Source: Nitrosopumilus sp. (GTDB lineage: Archaea > Thermoproteota > Nitrososphaeria > Nitrososphaerales > Nitrosopumilaceae). From it: a stretch of 64,000 nt of DNA. The notes below the pieces were generated by a model that worked only from the letters and a program-made list of their open reading frames with translations, ran no database searches and was not told the DNA's origin. Shown here one piece after another: positions 7,143-60,124 of this stretch (its first letter is position 1; the number at the start of each line of letters is the position of its first letter). The stretch is from NCBI GenBank assembly GCA_963667665.2, contig OY763927.2, positions 1,600,001-1,664,000 of the forward strand, in the 5' to 3' direction. The translations under genes were made by a program, and so were the position numbers.

Positions 7143-8339
7143 TTGTCTTTGTTGGATTATAGATTGAGATTAGCAAAAAGAATGCTTTTCAACAAAAGAG
7201 GTAGTTTGATTGGTGCAGTTTTAGCTGTAACCATTGGAATTTTGGTAATTCATGTAAATTTTGTAATATTTCAAGGACTGTTTGATGCTATAGTTAGAGA
7301 TATCAGCGATTACAGAAATGGTGATGTTCTTGTAACTGATGAAGCTGATTATATCGATAAATCAGATTTATCACTTGTTAATTGGTTTGAAAGAATTCCA
7401 TATGTTGAAGCGGCAACGCCGCGGCTTTCATCGACTGCCGAAATGAATATGACAAAAAATGGAAAACGAATTGAAGAAACTCGAGTGCCAATAGTTGGAG
7501 TTGATCCGTTTCGTGATATTAGAGCATCAACTGTACATGAAACTATTTCAGATGGAATCTATGTCTTCTCAAGAAATTCTATTGTACTCGGTGCAAATGT
7601 AGCAAGAGATCTTGGAGGAGCTCAAGTGGGGGATAGTGTTAAAGTTCTTGTAGTTGATAGATACGGAGAAGATCAAATTCGCAGGTTTACTGTTTCTGGA
7701 ATTGCAAATTCACCTGGTGGTCAAGGATTTGATTATACAGCTGTTGTACATATTGATACTTTACGTGATATGATGAGTAGATCTGGGGAAACTGGTTCAT
7801 TGATGGTGAAACTAAATGATCCATCCAAAGCATTAGAAGTAAAAGAATTCTTTTTGCGTTCTTTTCCTAATGATGATTTTCTTGCCGAAACCATAGAAGA
7901 ATCAGCAGAACAACAACTTGCTGGTTTTAGATCTGGTATTGCAATGATCAATATAATAGGTTATTTTGGAATGATGTCATCAGCTTTTGCTATTGTTACA
8001 ATTCAGATGATGTTAGTAAATGGAAAAACTAGAGAAATTGGTGTCATGAGATCAATTGGAGCAAAAAGAAAAGATATTCTAATTATTTTCATTTTTCAAG
8101 GAATGATAATTGGAGCAATTGGTGCAGGAGTAGGAACTGCTGCAGGATTAGGCTATACGTTTTATGCAAAGGAATCAAAAATGACATTTAACAACAGTCT
8201 CCCTCTTGAAGTCACCTATAACTGGGAAAAGATCGTACAAACTGCTTTGACCTCATTTGCCTTGGCAATTATTGCATCACTATACCCGTCGTATAGGGCA
8301 ACTAAGCTGTTACCAGTGGAGGCTATGAGAACTGTCTAA
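7143..8339 (+). CDS. MacB/LolE-type ABC transporter permease (FtsX domain)
   Basis: KTREIGVMRSIGAKRKDI, YPSYRATKLLPVEAMR, N-terminal TM plus large extracellular domain. Confidence 0.92.
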   Translation: MSLLDYRLRLAKRMLFNKRGSLIGAVLAVTIGILVIHVNFVIFQGLFDAIVRDISDYRNGDVLVTDEADYIDKSDLSLVNWFERIPYVEAATPRLSSTAEMNMTKNGKRIEETRVPIVGVDPFRDIRASTVHETISDGIYVFSRNSIVLGANVARDLGGAQVGDSVKVLVVDRYGEDQIRRFTVSGIANSPGGQGFDYTAVVHIDTLRDMMSRSGETGSLMVKLNDPSKALEVKEFFLRSFPNDDFLAETIEESAEQQLAGFRSGIAMINIIGYFGMMSSAFAIVTIQMMLVNGKTREIGVMRSIGAKRKDILIIFIFQGMIIGAIGAGVGTAAGLGYTFYAKESKMTFNNSLPLEVTYNWEKIVQTALTSFALAIIASLYPSYRATKLLPVEAMRTV

Positions 8340-9036
8340 AGTACTTGAAATCAAAAACGTAAGTAAGATTTACGGAGAAGGAGAAAATAAAGTAAAAGCT
8401 CTTGATAATGTTTCACTTTCAATTGAACAGGGAGAAGTTGTTTTAATTGTTGGAAGTTCAGGTTCTGGTAAATCAACATTACTTAACATGATTGGATTAT
8501 TAGATCATCCAACAAATGGCCAGATCTTCATTGACGGAATTAACACTACAACATTAAATGACAATAAAATTTCCTCATTTAGAAATAAAAAATTAGGATT
8601 TATTTTCCAATTTTCTAATTTACTTAGTGATCTCTCAGTACTAGAAAATGTATTGTTACCCAAACAAATTTCTGGAATTTATGATATTGCTGAAAAAGAT
8701 GCTAGAAATTTACTAAAAGCAGTTGGACTTGAAGATCAAATGTATAAACGTGCAAACAAGATATCAGGTGGACAAGCTCAAAGAGCAGCAATTGCAAGAG
8801 GCTTAATCAATAAACCATCCATTGTTTTAGCAGATGAACCTACTGGTAATCTTGATTCAGTAACTTCAGAAACAATTGTTCAATTAATGAAATCAATGGC
8901 AAAAAAACTTAATCAAACATTCATTATAGTTACACACGAAAGAGAGATCTTTGGTAATGTTGATAGAGTAATTACAATAAAAGATGGCAAAGCTTTCGAA
9001 GGTGAGCAACCTACAGCAATGGAGGTATTAGTATAA
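8332..9036 (+). CDS. LolD/MacB-type ABC ATP-binding protein; probable CTG start
   Basis: Frame open upstream of track start 8488 and includes Walker A GSSGSGKST; ISGGQAQR and LADEPTGNLD. In-frame TGA at 8326, CTG at 8332, GGAGG at 8318-8322. Confidence 0.9.
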   Translation: MSKVLEIKNVSKIYGEGENKVKALDNVSLSIEQGEVVLIVGSSGSGKSTLLNMIGLLDHPTNGQIFIDGINTTTLNDNKISSFRNKKLGFIFQFSNLLSDLSVLENVLLPKQISGIYDIAEKDARNLLKAVGLEDQMYKRANKISGGQAQRAAIARGLINKPSIVLADEPTGNLDSVTSETIVQLMKSMAKKLNQTFIIVTHEREIFGNVDRVITIKDGKAFEGEQPTAMEVLV

Positions 9037-53213: not shown

Positions 53214-53579
53214 ATGTCTGTTGAAGAACAACTTATTGAACATGCTAAACAAGGCAAACTCCTAACTCACAAGTGTACTAGCTGTGGTTACCTTCATTTA
53301 TCTACAGCATATTATTGCCTAAAATGCGGCAGCAAGGGATTTGAGGATGTCATTTTAGAGGGTACAGGTGAAATTGCTACTTATACTATAATTACAGTCG
53401 CGCCTGCAGGCTTTGAAAAATACACACCGTATGCCTTTGTTGTACTTCAACTAGATGACACACATTTGAGAATTTCTGGATTTATGCCCGGAATTTCCAC
53501 CCCTGCAGATCTCCCAGTTGGAGCAAGAGCCAAAATGACAGGTTTTGATGAACGTGGAATCATCATTGAAAAGCAGTAA
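53214..53579 (+). CDS. DUF35 Zn-ribbon/OB-fold thiolase partner
   Basis: CTSCG...CLKCG, GEIATYTII, PYAFVVLQL; directly after thiolase. Confidence 0.92.
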   Translation: MSVEEQLIEHAKQGKLLTHKCTSCGYLHLSTAYYCLKCGSKGFEDVILEGTGEIATYTIITVAPAGFEKYTPYAFVVLQLDDTHLRISGFMPGISTPADLPVGARAKMTGFDERGIIIEKQ

Positions 53580-53649
53580 AATAATTTGCTTGAATTATTA
53601 AAAAAAATCAAAATCGTTTCTTAATAATTTTGTATAGGTGATCATTTTC

Positions 53650-53811
53650 ATGTCAGTAGAAGTTACATGTGGTAAATGTGGAGAAAAGATCACAAACATG
53701 AAAATGTTAAAATCATTAAAAGATGTAATGAATCCTTACAGTGGAAAGTGTCCATCATGTGGACAGAAACTTTCTACATCTGAGTTTTCACTTGATGTCA
53801 AAGAAAACTAA
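53650..53811 (+). CDS. CPxCG zinc-finger microprotein (53 aa)
   Basis: MSVEVTCGKCGEKITNMKMLKSLKDVMNPYSGKCPSCGQKLSTSEFSLDVKEN*; GGTGA RBS upstream. Confidence 0.8.
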   Translation: MSVEVTCGKCGEKITNMKMLKSLKDVMNPYSGKCPSCGQKLSTSEFSLDVKEN

Positions 53812-53963
53812 TATTAACGATCTCTTGACATATCATTTTTCAATTTTTTTAAAAAATAGATCTATGATCTAAAAATTTTTATCTTTCAACAATAGATCTG
53901 ATCAAAAATTGTCCGAATTCATACAGTCATAAGTCTTAATTACCTCATAACTTAGAAAAATGC

Positions 53964-56117
53964 ATGGAATTGGAAGAAGAAGAACTCAAATTAGATTTAG
54001 ACTCCGATTTAGACTCCAATTCAGACTCTGATTTCGATTCAGAACCAGACGAAAATAGAGGTGGAATCTTACAATCAACATCAAAACGTGTTAGAATGAT
54101 CTTCTCTGTTATGGCAAGTCCCAATAGAATTGATATTCTCAGAATCCTAAATTCCAAGGGTCCTTTGACTTATTCTGAATTAAAATCTCTAGCTGGGTTC
54201 AAGTCTAAAAAAGAAAGTGGTAAATTTGCATACCATTTAAGAAAACTACTAAGACAATCCCTTGTTGCACTTAACAAATCTGAAAGACGTTATACTATTA
54301 CAAATCTTGGAAAACTAGTTTTAAGCTTGGCACGACAAATTGAAGAAAGATCAATTATTGAAAGTGGAAAAATGTATGTTAGAACATCACATGAATCCAT
54401 TGAAGAATTTAATTCTCATAAAATTATTCAATCACTAGTTCGCGAAGGAAGTCTTCCATTAGAACTAGCACAAAAAATTACCGAAGAAGTTGAAAATAGA
54501 ATTTACAAATATCAGACTACATATCTAACAGGCTCACTTATCAGAGAATTGGTAAATTCTGTTCTCTTAGAACATGGTCATGAGGAATATAGAAACAAAC
54601 TAGCACGCCTAGGTTTGCCTGTTTTTGATGTTCAGGAGATGATTACCAACTTAGATAATGTGAATAATGGTGCTGAGGGTCTTTTGTTTAACACTGGGCA
54701 GAGTGTATTTGCTGAACACTTGCTTACTAATATCTTACCAAAAGATGTTGCAGATTCTCATCTTTCTGGAGATTTGCATGTTACCAACCCTGGAATTTGG
54801 TCTATGATTCCTGATACAATATTTGTTAATGTCAAAGAATTGATTGAAGATGGAATTGATCTTGGTGGAAAATATCTTGACGTGTCAAGAATTCCTGCAT
54901 CAAAACAACTTGATGAAATTACAAGTTCATTGTCTGTCATAATATCTCTTATTTCAAAAGAAGCTTCACAAGAAATTGTACTTGATGGATTAGTTCAGGT
55001 GTTTTCAAAACATTCAAAGTCTCTTACAGAACTTGAACAAAAACTAACTAATGCATTTGCAACTGCATCTACAACTTCCCAATATAACAAAAAGAGTACT
55101 AATGTTTCAATTAGATTACAATTAGGAACTGATACAAAAATAATTAATTCAATTATCAAAGCATACAAAAATTATGTAAAGATTACACCAATACCAAAAA
55201 TTGGCCTTATAATAGATCATGAAAAAGGAAAGATAACTGATGTCTCACAATCAGCGTCTGAAATAATTCCACTTGGTGGAAAAATAATGTTTGCTAGAGG
55301 TCAAACATCTAGTAATGGTGTAACAAATGGATCTATAAAGAATGCAGGTCCACTTTCAATATCACTACAATCTGTTTCTATTAATCTTCCAAGACTTGCC
55401 TTTGAATCAAACAAAGATGAAACTTACTTTAGAGCAAGACTTGCATTACTAATGAAACCTGCATTATCTTCAATGGCACTAAGAAAGAAAGATATCTCAG
55501 ATATTACTAGAAGAGGACTTAATCCAATTCTTGCAAAGAATACTCAATACATGCAAAAAAGTTCTGTTTCTCTTGTTGTAAACTTGGTTGGACTCAAAGA
55601 ATCAGTCTTTAACATACTTGGATTCAAAGACAACAAAGAAGGTCGTAATATTCTTCATAAAGTCATTGAAACTGCAGTTGATGTTGCAAACAAAAAAGGC
55701 AAAGAATTAGGTAGTTCTGTGGCTATTTGTATGACTGAAACTGAAGGTTCACATCGTTTTGCCACACTTGATGGTGAGAAATATGGTAAGAATTCTGCCC
55801 TCAATTCGATGGAAGGTGATTCTTATTCTGAAGGTATGGTGATTAATGCCTCTGAAATTGGTGACTATACCCTCAAAAGTGAACCTATCTCTGAGTGTAA
55901 CAAGTTCTCAAAATTACTTAATGGAGGATTATCTGTACAACTAAAAATTGACAAAGATGCAAAGATTGATGAAATCAAAAAATCAATTGAGAAAGCATCT
56001 ACACTAGTCTCTTCTTTTAAACCAGTCAAGATGATCGCAATATGTGGTGAGTGTGGTTTCAAAGATGAACCATTTGAAGACAAGTGTCCAAAGTGTAAGT
56101 CATCATACATAGTCTGA
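53964..56117 (+). CDS. ArsR-type wHTH + ATP-cone + degenerate class III ribonucleotide reductase (NrdD)-like protein
   Basis: ASPNRIDILRIL..GPLTYSEL..FAYHLRKL..YTITNLG; VRTS..IEEFNSHKI ATP-cone; HLSGDLHV and SINLPRLA; C-terminal CGECG..CPKC; no glycyl-radical loop. Confidence 0.85.
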   Translation: MELEEEELKLDLDSDLDSNSDSDFDSEPDENRGGILQSTSKRVRMIFSVMASPNRIDILRILNSKGPLTYSELKSLAGFKSKKESGKFAYHLRKLLRQSLVALNKSERRYTITNLGKLVLSLARQIEERSIIESGKMYVRTSHESIEEFNSHKIIQSLVREGSLPLELAQKITEEVENRIYKYQTTYLTGSLIRELVNSVLLEHGHEEYRNKLARLGLPVFDVQEMITNLDNVNNGAEGLLFNTGQSVFAEHLLTNILPKDVADSHLSGDLHVTNPGIWSMIPDTIFVNVKELIEDGIDLGGKYLDVSRIPASKQLDEITSSLSVIISLISKEASQEIVLDGLVQVFSKHSKSLTELEQKLTNAFATASTTSQYNKKSTNVSIRLQLGTDTKIINSIIKAYKNYVKITPIPKIGLIIDHEKGKITDVSQSASEIIPLGGKIMFARGQTSSNGVTNGSIKNAGPLSISLQSVSINLPRLAFESNKDETYFRARLALLMKPALSSMALRKKDISDITRRGLNPILAKNTQYMQKSSVSLVVNLVGLKESVFNILGFKDNKEGRNILHKVIETAVDVANKKGKELGSSVAICMTETEGSHRFATLDGEKYGKNSALNSMEGDSYSEGMVINASEIGDYTLKSEPISECNKFSKLLNGGLSVQLKIDKDAKIDEIKKSIEKASTLVSSFKPVKMIAICGECGFKDEPFEDKCPKCKSSYIV

Positions 56118-56321
56118 ATTTCGTAAATGAAAAACTAGTTACGATCATTTTTGAAAACTTTTTGATCAGTATTCGATGTAGCGATCATCGTTGCTAACTG
56201 TTAAAATTATGTAAATATGAACATCATAACAGATGTGTCAACATTTTTGAACCGAGCTTGAAGAAAAAATTGCAGAATCATTTATAGACACATTAATCAT
56301 AACACCTACGGGGAGATTATT

Positions 56322-58973
56322 TTGGACAATTCACAAATAGAAAATACTATCAATGAGATCAAAAAGCGTAGTGGAGCAGTAACCGTCTTTAATAAAGATA
56401 AAATTTCAAATGCGATATTCAGGGCATTAGCTGCTACTTCTAAAGCAGATCGTAGCCTAGCAGATCAACTTGCAAATAACGTAGTCAACAAATTAGTAGA
56501 ACAAGGATTTACCAGCACAAGAACACCTACTGTTGAAGATATTCAAGATATTGTAGAATCAACTTTAATTGATAGCGGTAATAGTGATATAGCAAAAGCA
56601 TACATCGTTTACAGACACGAGAGAAGAAAATTAAGAGATGAAAAAAAGAGAGTCTTGAATCTAAAGACACTTGATCCAGTTTCCAAAAAATTTGATTTAA
56701 ATTGCCTGAGAATACTAGCATCAAGATATCTTTTTAGAAATGGAAAAAATGAAATTATTGAATCTCCAACACAAATGTTTGAAAGAGTTGCAATTCTAGT
56801 AGGAGTAGGTGATATCCTATATGATTCACAAGTATTTGACAAAGCAGGAAATATTAAACAAGATATTGATGAAGCAAAATCTTATCTTGAAAAACTAGAT
56901 GCCTTTGACTATAAATTCAAAGTCGGAAATTATTATCTAAACAAATGGCATTTTAGATCCTTGATAAATCACTATGTAACACTTGCAAACAAAGGTCAGA
57001 TGAAGATTAACTTCAAAGATCTTTTGACATTACTTGCAGCAAAGAAGCTTGATGATTATGCAGATAAAATTACTGAATACTTTGAGATGATGACATCCCA
57101 AGACTTTCTCCCAAATTCACCAACAATGATGAATGCAGGTGGAAGATTAGGACAGCTCTCAGCATGCTTTGTACTTGGTATGGGAGATGACATGGAAAAA
57201 ATCATGAAAACAACTTCTGATGCGGCATTAATCTTCAAATCAGGCGGTGGAGTTGGAATTAACTACTCTGATCTTCGTGAGGAGGGTGATATTGTAGCAT
57301 CAACATCTGGTGTTGCATCTGGACCCGTATCTTTTATGAATATTATCAACACTGTTACCGAAGTCGTCAAACAAGGAGGAAAAAGACGTGGTGCAAACAT
57401 GGGAATTATTGAGGCATGGCATCCTGATGTTGAAAAATTTATCACAAATAAGACAGAACCAGGTGTTTTAGAAAATTTTAACGTAAGTGTTGGTATCTGG
57501 GAAGACTTTTGGAATGCACTTGTTAACACTGAAGATGGTAACTATATGTTACGTAGTCCACGTGACAAACAACCAGTTAAAGAAATCAATGCACATCAGC
57601 TAATTGATCTAATTGCTCTATCTGCATGGAAAAGTGGAGAACCTGGATTGATCTTCTTTGATCAAATTAACAAATACAATGTATTTGCCAAAGCTAGACA
57701 AGCACCACTAAGAGCAACAAATCCTTGTGGTGAACAAAGTCTTTATCCATACGAATCATGCAACCTTGGTTCTATCAATTTAGTTAATCTAGTAAAGAGA
57801 CAAGCAAATGGATCTTATGAATTTGATTGGCAAAGATATGAAGAAATAATTAGAAAGACAACAAAATTCCTTGATAATATTATTGATGTAAACCATTATC
57901 CAGTTGAAGAAATCAATGTTGCATCCAAAGAATCTAGAAGAATTGGACTTGGAGTTATGGGCGTTGCTGATCTCTTATACAAACTAAGAATTCCATACAA
58001 TTCCAAAGAAGGATATGAACTACAATCCAAACTAGCAGAAGCTCTGACATACTATTCAATGGAAGAAAGTGTTGCACTTGCAAAATCTCGTGGTGAATTT
58101 CCACTTTGCTCAAAGACAGAATATCCAGAAGGAAAGATTCCTGTTTCAGGATACTATGAAAAACCCAAAGAAACTCATTCCTATGAATGGGGTGCATTAA
58201 TTGAAAAAATTAAAAAATATGGTATTAGACATGTTTTGGCTACAACAGTTGCCCCAACTGGTACGCTTTCTATGATTGCAGATTGTTCAAACGGAATGGA
58301 ACCTGCATTTGCTCTTGTGTTTGAAAAGAGAGTGACTGTTGGAAGATTCTTCTATACAAACAAGATTGTTGAAGAAGTCTTAAAAGAACATGGTCTTTAC
58401 AGCGATGAAATTCTAGCAAAGATTGCAGATAATTATGGTTCATTGAAAGGACTAGATGAAATCCCACAATGGATGCAAGATGTTTTCGTAACTGCAATGG
58501 ATATTCATTGGGCAGATCATCTTATGGCTCAAGGAGTATGGCAAGACTGGATTGGAAATGCAATTGCAAAAACAATCAACATGCCATATGATGTTACTGT
58601 AGAAGATGTAAAATCTGCATATCTATTAGCACATGAATTAGGACTAAAAGGAATTACAGTTTATCGTGATGGATCTAGACACAAGCAAGTACTTCACATG
58701 ACTAGTGAAAACGCAAAAAAAACATTTGAGGTAACACCAACTGAACACGTTACTGGTTATGTTACAGCAAATATCACAAATCCATATATAAAATCACAAG
58801 TCAATGCTGCACTTGCAATTAAAGTTCACGAGAATGATCTCAAAGTTGAACCTGTAGTACAAGAAGAGATCTCAGAAGATCGTTTATGTCCAACCTGCAA
58901 AAACAACCTGGTCTTTGTTGAAGGTTGCAGTATCTGCATTGATTGTGGATACAGCGGTTGTACTTCTGGATAA
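56322..58973 (+). CDS. nrdJ: adenosylcobalamin-dependent (class II) ribonucleotide reductase with N-terminal ATP-cone
   Basis: IKKRSG ATP-cone, PNSPTMMNAG, LSACFV, ATNPCGEQ, ESCNLGSINL, APTGT, KGITVYRDGSR, C-terminal Cys cluster. Confidence 0.96.
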   Translation: MDNSQIENTINEIKKRSGAVTVFNKDKISNAIFRALAATSKADRSLADQLANNVVNKLVEQGFTSTRTPTVEDIQDIVESTLIDSGNSDIAKAYIVYRHERRKLRDEKKRVLNLKTLDPVSKKFDLNCLRILASRYLFRNGKNEIIESPTQMFERVAILVGVGDILYDSQVFDKAGNIKQDIDEAKSYLEKLDAFDYKFKVGNYYLNKWHFRSLINHYVTLANKGQMKINFKDLLTLLAAKKLDDYADKITEYFEMMTSQDFLPNSPTMMNAGGRLGQLSACFVLGMGDDMEKIMKTTSDAALIFKSGGGVGINYSDLREEGDIVASTSGVASGPVSFMNIINTVTEVVKQGGKRRGANMGIIEAWHPDVEKFITNKTEPGVLENFNVSVGIWEDFWNALVNTEDGNYMLRSPRDKQPVKEINAHQLIDLIALSAWKSGEPGLIFFDQINKYNVFAKARQAPLRATNPCGEQSLYPYESCNLGSINLVNLVKRQANGSYEFDWQRYEEIIRKTTKFLDNIIDVNHYPVEEINVASKESRRIGLGVMGVADLLYKLRIPYNSKEGYELQSKLAEALTYYSMEESVALAKSRGEFPLCSKTEYPEGKIPVSGYYEKPKETHSYEWGALIEKIKKYGIRHVLATTVAPTGTLSMIADCSNGMEPAFALVFEKRVTVGRFFYTNKIVEEVLKEHGLYSDEILAKIADNYGSLKGLDEIPQWMQDVFVTAMDIHWADHLMAQGVWQDWIGNAIAKTINMPYDVTVEDVKSAYLLAHELGLKGITVYRDGSRHKQVLHMTSENAKKTFEVTPTEHVTGYVTANITNPYIKSQVNAALAIKVHENDLKVEPVVQEEISEDRLCPTCKNNLVFVEGCSICIDCGYSGCTSG

Positions 58974-59014
58974 ATAACAAAATCACAACTTTTTTACTTT
59001 CTTTTCCAATTAGT

Positions 59015-60124
59015 ATGAATATGAAAATTCTAGGTGTAACTGCAGGCCTAGTAGTAATTATTGCAATATCAGCTGTAATTTTGAGTTTACCGAGTTCAGA
59101 AATTATCACTAATCAAAAAATTGGTCTTGTAATTAATTCTCCAAATCAATCAATAACTTTACAAGAATTAGATCAAATTTACTCTGAAGCATCAACCACT
59201 GGCATTGGAAGAAGTAACGTCTATCTTTTTTGGAATATAGTTGAACCCGTACGTGGAGAATATGATTGGCAACAATCAGATGTAATGTTTGGGTTAAATG
59301 AAAAAAATGATCTCAAAGTTACTCTCTTCTTTTCAGTAATTAATGGAGAAACACTTGGTCCATTTCCTGATTGGATTGGAAAACCATCTCTTAACTCTCT
59401 TGGAGAAGACAGGCTCGTAAATGTTCTTGATGCAATTCTTTCACGATATAATATCATAGATACAGTAATTATTGGCGGTGAAACTGAATCTCAATTTCGT
59501 TACTATGAACAAAATATTTCTGTATACCAAGAGCTGTTTTCTGGAGTTTATGAAAAAATAAAAGAAAAATATCCTGATGTAAAATTTGGAAATTCGTTTG
59601 CATTACATCATGTATTGAATAAAGATTTGAAACATATTGTTAGTGATTTAGCAATTGGTGATTTTGTTGCATTTTCATACTTTCCAGTTGATACACTAAA
59701 TGATGTTGTAAAAACTCCTCAAGAAGCTATAGAAGATTTAGAGAAAGTATTTGAAATTGTACCAAACAAAAAAGTTGGATTTTTTGAGATTAGCTGGAGT
59801 ACGTCAGATTTCATAGGCGGAAATATTGCTTCTCAGAAAGATTTCTTGGATAAATTATTCGAGTTTTATTCAGAAAATGAATCTGAAATTGAATTTTTAA
59901 CATGGTACAGGCAATATGATAGACTAGAAGGCACTTGTATTACAGAACAACAAGACATTGGTGATAAAAGTATCAGTGTTGGAGGAGGTTCTGGTTTGGG
60001 TAGTAGTGAATACGTTATTGAAAGACTAAACTATTATGTTTGCAATGCTGGTCTTGTTGATGTTAATGGTAATCCAAAATCTGGATGGTATGAATTTAAA
60101 AAACAAATAGAAATGATCAACTAA
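59015..60124 (+). CDS. membrane-anchored glycoside-hydrolase-like TIM-barrel protein
   Basis: N-terminal TM; WNIVEPVRGEYDW, IGGE and FFEISWST resemble GH-A clan motifs. Confidence 0.6.
   Translation: MNMKILGVTAGLVVIIAISAVILSLPSSEIITNQKIGLVINSPNQSITLQELDQIYSEASTTGIGRSNVYLFWNIVEPVRGEYDWQQSDVMFGLNEKNDLKVTLFFSVINGETLGPFPDWIGKPSLNSLGEDRLVNVLDAILSRYNIIDTVIIGGETESQFRYYEQNISVYQELFSGVYEKIKEKYPDVKFGNSFALHHVLNKDLKHIVSDLAIGDFVAFSYFPVDTLNDVVKTPQEAIEDLEKVFEIVPNKKVGFFEISWSTSDFIGGNIASQKDFLDKLFEFYSENESEIEFLTWYRQYDRLEGTCITEQQDIGDKSISVGGGSGLGSSEYVIERLNYYVCNAGLVDVNGNPKSGWYEFKKQIEMIN

Follow-up and report, generated by a model that had tools for sequence, protein, structure and literature searches.

The 64,000-nucleotide (nt) stretch of Nitrosopumilus sp. 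DNA analyzed here (the window; contig OY763927.2, positions 1,600,001 to 1,664,000) contains, upstream of nrdJ, an open reading frame (ORF) for a 717-amino-acid (aa) protein that we read, with a probability of about 0.6, as a nucleotide-sensing transcription regulator of ribonucleotide reductase (RNR) genes, derived from NrdD and similar to NrdR in its working but unrelated to it. Class III RNR, the NrdD type, is an oxygen-sensitive DNA-precursor enzyme; alignments and motif positions indicate that the 717-aa protein is catalytically dead as such an enzyme and has lost all radical chemistry. The initial annotation of this DNA had proposed an enzyme-derived transcription factor for nrdJ, which is partly supported: the origin from an enzyme, the dead catalysis, and the linkage have evidence behind them, and the rest, that is, DNA binding, nucleotide binding, the sign of regulation (repressor or activator), and the identity of the operator, we infer.

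The two genes lie on the same strand, and a 204-nt spacer separates them:

53964..56117 (+), gene for the putative regulator (winged helix-turn-helix [wHTH], ATP-cone, and apparently dead NrdD-like body), assigned by ORF, domains, fold, and family conservation
56322..58973 (+), nrdJ, B12-dependent class II RNR with a canonical ATP-cone, assigned by TIGR02504 and ATP-cone matches; presumed target

The 883-aa product of the downstream ORF is NrdJ (TIGR02504, 720 bits against a cutoff of 400; canonical ATP-cone, 79 bits), and a genome-wide search found nrdJ to be the sole RNR barrel or catalytic gene of the genome, which is 1.89 Mb in size and 99.97% complete. The region is AT-rich, with ∼31 to 37% G+C over the scanned 50- to 64-kb part of the window. 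An aerobic host, as supposed from the start, is supported by an archaeal amoA gene (390 bits) and by the name Nitrosopumilus on close homologues of the 717-aa protein.

Domain architecture and predicted fold

The domain order first proposed for the protein (acidic leader, ArsR-like wHTH, ATP-cone, NrdD-like barrel, and Zn ribbon) is borne out by Pfam matches, charge, and AlphaFold and Foldseek results, and the four motifs quoted with it (HLSGDLHV, SINLPRLA, SMIPDT, and TSSNG) are all present:

53964..54053 (+), acidic disordered leader, aa 1 to 30; net charge −14, pLDDT <50
54066..54338 (+), ArsR/SmtB-like wHTH, aa 35 to 125; net charge +15, HTH_20 and DUF7347 above cutoffs
54372..54590 (+), variant ATP-cone (PF03477), aa 137 to 209; VRTS at 139 to 142 replaces canonical KRDG
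54609..56033 (+), NrdD-fold body, apparently without catalytic residues; alignments, Foldseek, and motif positions
aa 266 to 273 (+), HLSGDLHV; motif search
54801-54818 (+), SMIPDT, aa 280 to 285, opposite the first active-site Cys; alignment
55269-55283 (+), PLGGK, opposite the finger loop in the pairwise PDB alignment
55305-55319 (+), TSSNG, aa 448 to 452, opposite the thiyl-Cys finger loop in the family alignment
55377-55400 (+), SINLPRLA, aa 472 to 479; motif search
56043..56096 (+), C-terminal Zn ribbon, CGEC (694 to 697) ... CPKC (708 to 711); C694, C697, C708, and C711 invariant or near-invariant

Within the wHTH, Pfam HTH_20 (PF12840) matches residues 50 to 102 (32.5 bits; cutoff, 27) and DUF7347 matches residues 46 to 120 (40.7 bits; cutoff, 27.6); NCBIfam HTH_metalloreg (NF033788) reaches 23.6 bits on the 717-aa protein against a cutoff of 55. 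For residues 31 to 135, the best PDB sequence matches are SmtB and ArsR (E = 0.28 to 0.54), and alignments with SmtB, ArsR, and MarR are weak. The putative recognition helix is FAYHLRKL (aa 88 to 95). The acidic leader varies in length within the genus and is absent in other families, whose matches begin at query residue 22 to 46. In the window (53964-54338), this genus-specific leader (net −14) directly precedes the strongly basic wHTH (net +15); that it serves as an intramolecular DNA mimic or autoinhibitor of the wHTH is pure speculation.

We define the wHTH-NrdD family as the 717-aa protein together with homologues that have the wHTH, the cone, and the NrdD-like body. The ATP-cone of the 717-aa protein matches PF03477 at 34.3 bits (cutoff, 25.8; residues 137 to 209). 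By alignment, the family cone retains the equivalents of Streptomyces coelicolor NrdR V48, E56/F58, and K62, and has T-S at the equivalents of K50-R51, with a near-invariant Arg one position earlier; mutation of V48, K50, E56/F58, or K62 impaired nucleotide binding by S. coelicolor NrdR, according to passages of PMC9110341. Judged by these residues, nucleotide binding by the family cone is plausible.

The body of the protein matches NRDD (PF13597) at 90.2 bits (cutoff, 26.2) and falls far below the cutoff of the NrdD equivalog TIGR02487 (81.3 versus 326.35 bits). The AlphaFold model (pLDDT, 87.8; pTM, 0.76) has only class III RNRs as its top Foldseek matches (9d3x, E = 8e−21; T4 1hk8, TM score of 0.65 on the target; TM scores up to 0.66 on the target). 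A 48-sequence alignment contains 48 invariant or near-invariant columns, 10 of them in the wHTH, 22 in the cone and linker, 12 in the body, and 4 in the Zn ribbon. With 27% of the length, the wHTH and cone hold 32 of these 48 (the body has 475 aa), so the functional core looks like a DNA-binding module plus a cone; from the same distribution, the barrel looks like a scaffold and possible second sensor. Purifying selection on the family is strong and falls mainly on the wHTH and cone.

The conserved positions outside that core bear on an alternative in which the protein acts at the protein level, as a noncatalytic partner, scaffold, or allosteric modulator of a live RNR or of nucleotide pools, its wHTH serving protein contacts or unspecific nucleoid tethering. 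Selection on the whole NrdD body and Zn ribbon (the 12 and 4 near-invariant positions) seems needless for a plain DNA-binding sensor, a live paralogue adjoins the gene in Bathyarchaeia (see below), and dead paralogues often regulate their live relatives. We nevertheless regard such a role as quite unlikely, because the partner in ammonia oxidizers would be NrdJ, another RNR class, and in family f4 yet another type; because the wHTH and cone are the most conserved parts, not the barrel; and because the wHTH has a strong positive charge (+15) and an ArsR-type recognition helix.

Loss of ribonucleotide reductase catalysis

The only Cys residues of the 717-aa protein are at positions 589, 645, 694, 697, 708, and 711, and since none precedes residue 589, no alignment can put a Cys at either active-site position, as the initial annotation had claimed. 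Its other claim about catalysis, a stop before the glycyl-radical loop, is also correct: the protein ends 6 residues past the last Zn-ribbon Cys, before the expected glycyl-radical domain, whereas true NrdDs of the same class run on past the Zn ribbon into SR[IV]VGYLRP. Two reference NrdDs, encoded by ORFs in L050 and L052 of anaerobes within the class, show YC.GWD, SMCC.LRL, INLPRIGY, the Zn ribbon, and SR.VGYLRP. In the family alignment, the 717-aa protein has DTIFVN opposite YCCGWD and SSNGV opposite SMCCR, and it retains INLPRLA and the Zn ribbon. Placement of TSSNG opposite the finger-loop Cys therefore holds in the family alignment (SSNGV versus SMCCR) but not in the pairwise alignment with PDB 9d3x, in which PLGGK stands opposite PMGCR; the register of the finger loop differs by alignment, with no Cys either way. 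Two of the checks suggested with the annotation agreed with it, the NrdD alignment confirming loss of Cys and Gly and the AlphaFold/Foldseek comparison confirming a class III RNR fold.

The genome contains no Gly_radical (PF01228) match and no second PF13597 gene. Its best match to the NrdG model TIGR02491 scores 34 bits against a cutoff of 126, so the lack of nrdG noted near the locus extends to the whole genome. A 237-aa radical S-adenosylmethionine ORF was rejected as an NrdG candidate because it scores best against QueE models and adjoins FolE. A separate glycyl-radical domain with NrdG, by which RNR activity might have been restored, is not found in the genome, and the loss of catalysis stands.

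Distribution and phylogeny of the family

A word-indexed search returned >4000 database homologues. The best 120 all carry the same four Pfam domains, under names as different as "anaerobic ribonucleoside-triphosphate reductase," "helix-turn-helix domain-containing protein," and "ArsR family transcriptional regulator." The suspected misannotation is real: public records name homologues anaerobic or triphosphate RNR, including the ortholog's entry in the supplement of PMC6593220, as far as the portion covering these genes goes. Within the class, 280 of 301 genomes have a match at E ≤1e−5 and 274 at E ≤1e−60; for high-quality genomes, the figure at E ≤1e−5 is 258 of 261. (Three genomes marked as unpublished [G132, G231, and G282] are counted in the 301-genome tallies; no other result uses them.) In family f8, real members are lacking (0 of 14 with a strong match), and a live NrdD is present instead.

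When 1.84 billion representatives were searched exhaustively without a profile, 1247 matches were obtained at E ≤1e−3, in two tiers. The first comprises short forms like the 717-aa protein; the second comprises long forms of ∼740 to 800 aa with the same wHTH and cone and a full-length NrdD body, which come from Bathyarchaeia and Hecatellales. In the genome collection, ≥589 long-form stretches were confirmed, the best 80 of which were used for locus counts. One long form passes the NrdD equivalog cutoff (TIGR02487). In wHTH-bearing bathyarchaeal copies, the first Cys is found in 0 of 79, the radical Gly in 1 of 79, and the finger-loop Cys in 17 of 79, never together with the radical Gly (0/79). 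Similarly, among 44 long-form representatives, 11 have the radical-site Gly and 2 the finger-loop Cys, and none has both; the first Cys is present in 0 of the 86 members of the representative alignment. The neighboring NrdDs with full-length ORFs retain every catalytic residue, 28 of 28 having a first Cys, a CC finger loop, and a G-Y radical site.

The finger-loop Cys of 17/79 long forms and the radical-site Gly of 11/44 representatives, along with the retained fold, INLPR and HLSG motifs, and Zn ribbon, could be taken to mean that the protein is still an enzyme, either a cryptic RNR or some other radical or nonradical enzyme that uses unrecognized residues or a separate radical-bearing subunit. 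This is very improbable, given that the two residues never occur together (0/79 and 0/44), that the first Cys is missing throughout (0/86 and 0/79), that the 717-aa protein has no Cys before residue 589, and that neither an activase nor a glycyl-radical domain is encoded in the 99.97% complete genome of this aerobe.

In an unrooted maximum-likelihood tree, a branch with SH-aLRT support of 100 splits 30 live NrdDs from 26 wHTH proteins, and the truncated forms make up a single clade (SH-aLRT, 100). The wHTH forms are thus a single clade apart from live NrdDs. The cone signature VRTS...LIRE...RLG.PV is common to the family and to some live bathyarchaeal NrdDs with intact catalytic residues, and it does not occur in the canonical cones of NrdJ or of the L050 and L052 NrdDs; such sharing of an odd signature fits an origin by duplication of that bathyarchaeal NrdD subclass. 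To judge from these sequences, a series of intermediates is alive today: a live enzyme, a full-length dead copy beside a live enzyme, and a truncated dead copy beside another RNR class.

Two further sequences came to light in these searches. A contig labeled as a Krumholzibacteriaceae bacterium metagenome-assembled genome (L103) carries a typical bathyarchaeal long-form gene, with 48% identity to P0163, and is probably a binning error. P0252 is a 1206-aa true NrdD (TIGR02487, 531 bits) interrupted by an intein (intein_Nterm, 40 bits).

Linkage to ribonucleotide reductase genes

The order regulator then nrdJ, on the same strand, is found in all 30 loci of the genus and in all 20 loci from other genera of the family, that is, in 50 of 50 family loci. 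Downstream nrdJ on the same strand also occurs in two f3 loci and in one locus each of f2 and f5; in f7 and f15, nrdJ adjoins the regulator but is convergent; and in f4 the downstream gene encodes a different, cone-less RNR with a TSCPD domain. In Bathyarchaeia, an RNR gene lies immediately downstream in 37 of the 66 informative loci (those of the best 80 with ≥1 kb of downstream sequence), 34 being nrdD and 3 nrdJ, and it is on the same strand in 37 of 37. The distance from the end of the regulator match is 84 to 917 nt to nrdD and up to 1634 nt to nrdJ. Linkage to nrdJ across archaea, proposed with the initial annotation as a test of it, accordingly holds in the 50 family loci and in four other families of the order, takes the form of a place before live nrdD in Bathyarchaeia, and fails in f9 to f12. 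The linkage thus outlasts changes of RNR class, type, and orientation, a persistence not readily accounted for by inheritance of gene order alone.

Other genes also occur at these loci. In L074, a 101-aa glutaredoxin-family ORF (8417-8722 [+]; PF00462, 33 bits versus 23) separates the dead regulator from the live nrdD, and a similar CxxC reading frame is seen by eye in other long bathyarchaeal spacers (L061, L062, L064, L073, L083, and others); these ORFs suggest a redoxin-dependent NrdD subtype. In the bathyarchaeal locus L062, pyrB (aspartate carbamoyltransferase; 7732-8652 [−]) is convergent to the regulator-nrdD unit. In f9 (L054:9205-10712), convergent pyrB/pyrI abuts the regulator directly; the f9 order is the L062 order, regulator-nrdD-pyrB, minus nrdD, consistent with loss of nrdD. 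In f12, a NUDIX hydrolase gene stands beside the regulator.

Promoter regions and GATC elements

Footprints across genus loci identified conserved blocks upstream of the regulator and in the regulator-nrdJ spacer, the latter across 30 loci:

53812..53963 (+), regulator upstream region, 152 nt; footprint across genus loci
53832-53843 (+), box ATCATTTTTCAA; conserved block
53857-53871 (+), TAGATC-TAT-GATCTA; conserved block TAGATC-N3-GATCTA
53898-53908 (+), CTGATCAAAAA, reverse complement of the spacer's TTTTTGATCAG; conserved block
53926-53942 (+), core promoter GTCATAAGTCTTAATTA of the regulator; present in 28/30 genus loci
56118..56321 (+), regulator-nrdJ spacer; footprint across 30 genus loci
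56132-56169 (+), spacer block AAACTAGTTACGATCATTTTTSAAAAYTTTTTGATC; sharply conserved in the 30 genus loci
56181-56190 (+), spacer block GCGATCATCG; core CGATC.T[CT] in 30/30 genus loci
56235-56250 (+), spacer block GTGTCAACATTTTTGA; sharply conserved in the 30 genus loci
around 56272-56288 (+), CAGAATCATTTATA, resembling a B recognition element (BRE) plus TATA box; conserved block
56310-56316 (+), Shine-Dalgarno-like GGGGAGA; conserved block

The 12-mer ATCATTTTTSAA has eight copies in the genome, six inside ORFs; of the two that are intergenic, one is upstream of the regulator and the other upstream of nrdJ, and both point the same way. GATC, which is depleted genome-wide (0.69 of expectation), occurs five times in the 152 nt upstream of the regulator, where 0.54 is expected from noncoding DNA (P ∼2e−4), and three times in the spacer, where 0.72 is expected (P ∼0.04); the motif was chosen after looking at the sequences, and the loci are kin. 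Over 43 of the 50 family loci (the other 7 were dropped because their core promoter was not found by pattern), the mean number of GATC per 160 nt is 4.3 upstream of the regulator core promoter (range, 1 to 9), 2.6 in the spacer, and 0.53 in coding sequence of these loci, and GATC is present in both noncoding regions at every one of the 43. Some genera of the family have arrays of 8 to 10 sites. GATC clusters were rejected as a unique mark of these promoters, as 109 clusters of ≥3 within 70 nt exist genome-wide.

Outside the family, f2, f3, and f5 share TTTTACAAAG-N-TTTTAAT at the regulator promoter in place of the GATC elements. In Bathyarchaeia, the regulators' own promoters share ACTTTAATTTTTTAAACTA, probably a core promoter, and in an unbiased comparison three 7-mers are enriched after the regulator stop: TTTATAC (23/37 loci), TTATACA (23/37), and TATACAG (16/37), compared with 4, 10, and 9, respectively, of 696 background windows. 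We do not claim a bathyarchaeal operator, because CAGAAT plus TTTATA also fits the generic archaeal BRE plus TATA consensus.

No RNA element was indicated in the spacer: 53500-56400 gave no Rfam match at E ≤1, and the spacer showed no folding signal (z-score, +0.43). Metatranscriptome contigs of both genes (≥99% identity) were found in four runs from two studies; those of the regulator extend to 56103-56163 and those of nrdJ begin at 56334-56347, leaving 56164-56333 uncovered. Because such contigs carry no strand or depth meaning, the gap was rejected as evidence that the regulator and nrdJ have separate transcripts.

Two loci of the genus (L025 and L026) have spacer insertions of ∼115 to 360 nt, each with an extra copy of the CGATCATCG block. 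Elsewhere in the genome, outside the window, two noncoding segments (G000:C1:567681-567900 and 588502-590466) contain repeated and inverted GGTTCTGGTAAATTCT.GTGATC-type elements, with up to 10 GATC; these resemble origin-recognition-box repeats and may mark replication origins. GTAC and GGCC are also found at only ∼0.8 of their expected frequency genome-wide. Depletion of GATC, GTAC, and GGCC suggests restriction-modification or methylation pressure, which could bear on how the promoter GATC arrays are read.

Weighing the regulatory reading

The niche for such a regulator appears vacant, which supports our reading: NrdR was not found in the genome, and nrdJ is the only RNR gene. That nrdJ is regulated follows from passages of PMC6593220, which report a rise in RNR relative abundance under H2O2 in Nitrosopumilus.

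Several observations count against a nucleotide-sensing regulator of RNR genes. The family cone lacks the Lys-Arg of KRDG, where mutation of K50 hurt nucleotide binding by NrdR in the experiments described in passages of PMC9110341. The 50 family loci are kin, so that counts overstate their independence, and the tree is unrooted, with NrdDs only from these lineages. There is no RNR neighbor in f9 to f12 (5 loci, each with ≥5.4 kb of flank on each side, mostly ∼7 kb), and 29 of the 66 informative bathyarchaeal loci have no RNR immediately downstream. No operator is conserved between families, the GATC elements being confined to the window's family. Nor are GATC clusters rare: the regulator upstream region is only within the top 8 of 1327 noncoding segments, and a different factor might recognize the clusters, for instance one that depends on methylation. 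Finally, the block after the regulator stop carries T-tracts and could be the regulator's terminator.

Some of these same observations favor a DNA-binding sensor of nucleotide or energy state with a wider regulon (replication, nucleotide metabolism, or the cell cycle), its proximity to nrd genes being largely inherited gene order. Deep families keep the protein without an RNR neighbor, next to pyrB/pyrI (f9) or a NUDIX hydrolase (f12); 29/66 bathyarchaeal loci lack the downstream RNR; and other GATC-dense noncoding segments exist in the genome. We consider a wider regulon unlikely, as the linkage has outlasted a change of orientation and replacement among three nonorthologous RNR kinds (nrdD, nrdJ with a cone, and cone-less nrdJ with TSCPD), the sole two intergenic copies of ATCATTTTTSAA are at the regulator and nrdJ, and the f9 layout looks like the L062 order with nrdD deleted.

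Under the regulatory reading that we prefer, the 717-aa protein would be an NrdD paralogue that lost radical chemistry, kept the cone, barrel, and Zn ribbon, and gained a basic N-terminal wHTH. A dimeric (or higher) NrdD-fold scaffold would hold two wHTH domains. Adenine or deoxynucleotides would bind the cone and possibly also effector or substrate pockets that the dead barrel has retained, and nucleotide occupancy would shift how the protein oligomerizes or how its two wHTH domains are placed relative to each other. The shifted assembly would alter DNA binding at the GATC-centered elements of both promoters; the targets would be the neighboring RNR gene (nrdJ here) and probably the regulator's own gene.

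As for its history, nrdD was likely duplicated in the ancestor of Bathyarchaeia and Nitrososphaeria, after which one of the copies acquired a wHTH by fusion and lost its enzymatic function. When ancestors of the ammonia oxidizers turned aerobic and relied on nrdJ, the regulator likely stayed and shed its glycyl-radical tail. A bolder form of this account, to which we give slightly less than even odds, places the wHTH fusion before the split of Bathyarchaeia and Nitrososphaeria and makes the protein a very old archaeal master regulator that governs DNA-precursor synthesis and stems from the enzyme under its control. It would have retained the allosteric apparatus (the cone and perhaps the specificity and substrate pockets) as a sensor of dNTPs and ATP, outlived class III RNR once B12-dependent class II RNR had taken over, lost its glycyl-radical tail, and been rewired onto nrdJ.

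Other features of the locus

Two ORFs flank the regulator-nrdJ pair. Between a thiolase/OB-fold pair and the regulator lies a 53-aa ORF (53650-53811 [+]) with two CxxC pairs, a small Zn ribbon; its coding sequence is kept across the genus and in other genera of the family, and its DUF7837 and zinc-ribbon matches are subthreshold. A 393-aa ORF (58943-60124 [+]) overlaps the final 31 nt of nrdJ and has an N-terminal hydrophobic stretch; it matches no Pfam family at E ≤1e−3.

Significance and comparison with known systems

Among the papers listed in searches of the open literature (subscription-only papers and the RNRdb classification lay outside the search), we found no description of a wHTH-NrdD fusion, of a dead NrdD, or of class III RNR in ammonia oxidizers; passages of PMC3019208 and PMC2795772 make no mention of these archaea. 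The supplement of PMC6593220, in the portion covering these genes, lists ortholog OG0255, "ribonucleoside-triphosphate reductase," beside OG0256, named there as a class II ribonucleoside-diphosphate reductase, in the gene order of the window; of the two, only the class II entry appears in the passage of that paper with KEGG assignments. The family is large and apparently undescribed, and its hosts are ecologically dominant archaea. Regulation of RNR genes in archaea is largely unknown, and the family offers a testable candidate in two very large archaeal lineages that include the marine and soil ammonia oxidizers. It also corrects a systematic misannotation: the label "anaerobic RNR" wrongly implies anaerobic capacity in aerobic nitrifiers and distorts surveys of RNR classes. 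In these B12-producing archaea, B12-dependent deoxynucleotide synthesis would be tied to a dedicated control element, and the family would show, in nature and clearly, how an allosteric enzyme can be reused as a sensor-regulator.

The designs themselves, RNR regulators based on a cone and a wHTH fused to a dead enzyme, are already known. In MocR/GabR-type regulators, an N-terminal wHTH precedes an aminotransferase-fold domain that no longer performs its ancestral catalysis and serves as ligand sensor and dimerization scaffold. The 717-aa protein follows the same design principle, a wHTH plus a large former-enzyme fold, but enzyme fold, ligand class, and lineage are all distinct, and there is no homology. 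Its wHTH resembles those of ArsR/SmtB proteins in part (HTH_20 above its cutoff and HTH_metalloreg below; SmtB and ArsR as best PDB sequence matches for residues 31 to 135), whereas its predicted sensor is a 600-aa cone plus barrel rather than metal sites at a dimer interface. With NrdD, as represented by the T4, Thermotoga maritima, Prevotella copri, and Streptococcus thermophilus structures, it shares the fold, a cone N-terminal to the body, the HLSG and INLPR motifs, and a C-terminal Zn ribbon; it differs in lacking the thiyl Cys, the second Cys, the glycyl-radical domain, and an activase, in having an extra wHTH, and in falling far below the equivalog cutoff.

The closest functional parallel is NrdR, which passages of PMC9110341 describe in most bacteria and only some archaea as a small DNA-binding module plus an ATP-cone, encoded beside nrd genes and often autoregulated, in which nucleotide state is translated into promoter occupancy. 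The 717-aa protein likewise joins a putative DNA-binding module to an ATP-cone, here a variant one, and is encoded beside an nrd gene. In NrdR, however, the DNA-binding module is a Zn ribbon rather than a wHTH; the 717-aa protein has a whole dead NrdD body after the cone, and in its cone the KR of KRDG is missing. Beyond the cone the two have no sequence relationship, and the 717-aa protein arose independently, from an enzyme. The phrase "archaeal analogue of NrdR" in the initial annotation consequently fits how the protein may work and not its membership, as its module is a wHTH and not a Zn ribbon and the genome has no NrdR (TIGR00244) match, although the positive control matched in 9 of 14 genomes. 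If the bolder account of its history is true, an allosteric enzyme in its entirety, rather than some small domain, was turned into the sensor of a transcription factor, and some of Earth's most abundant archaea have a functional counterpart of bacterial NrdR.

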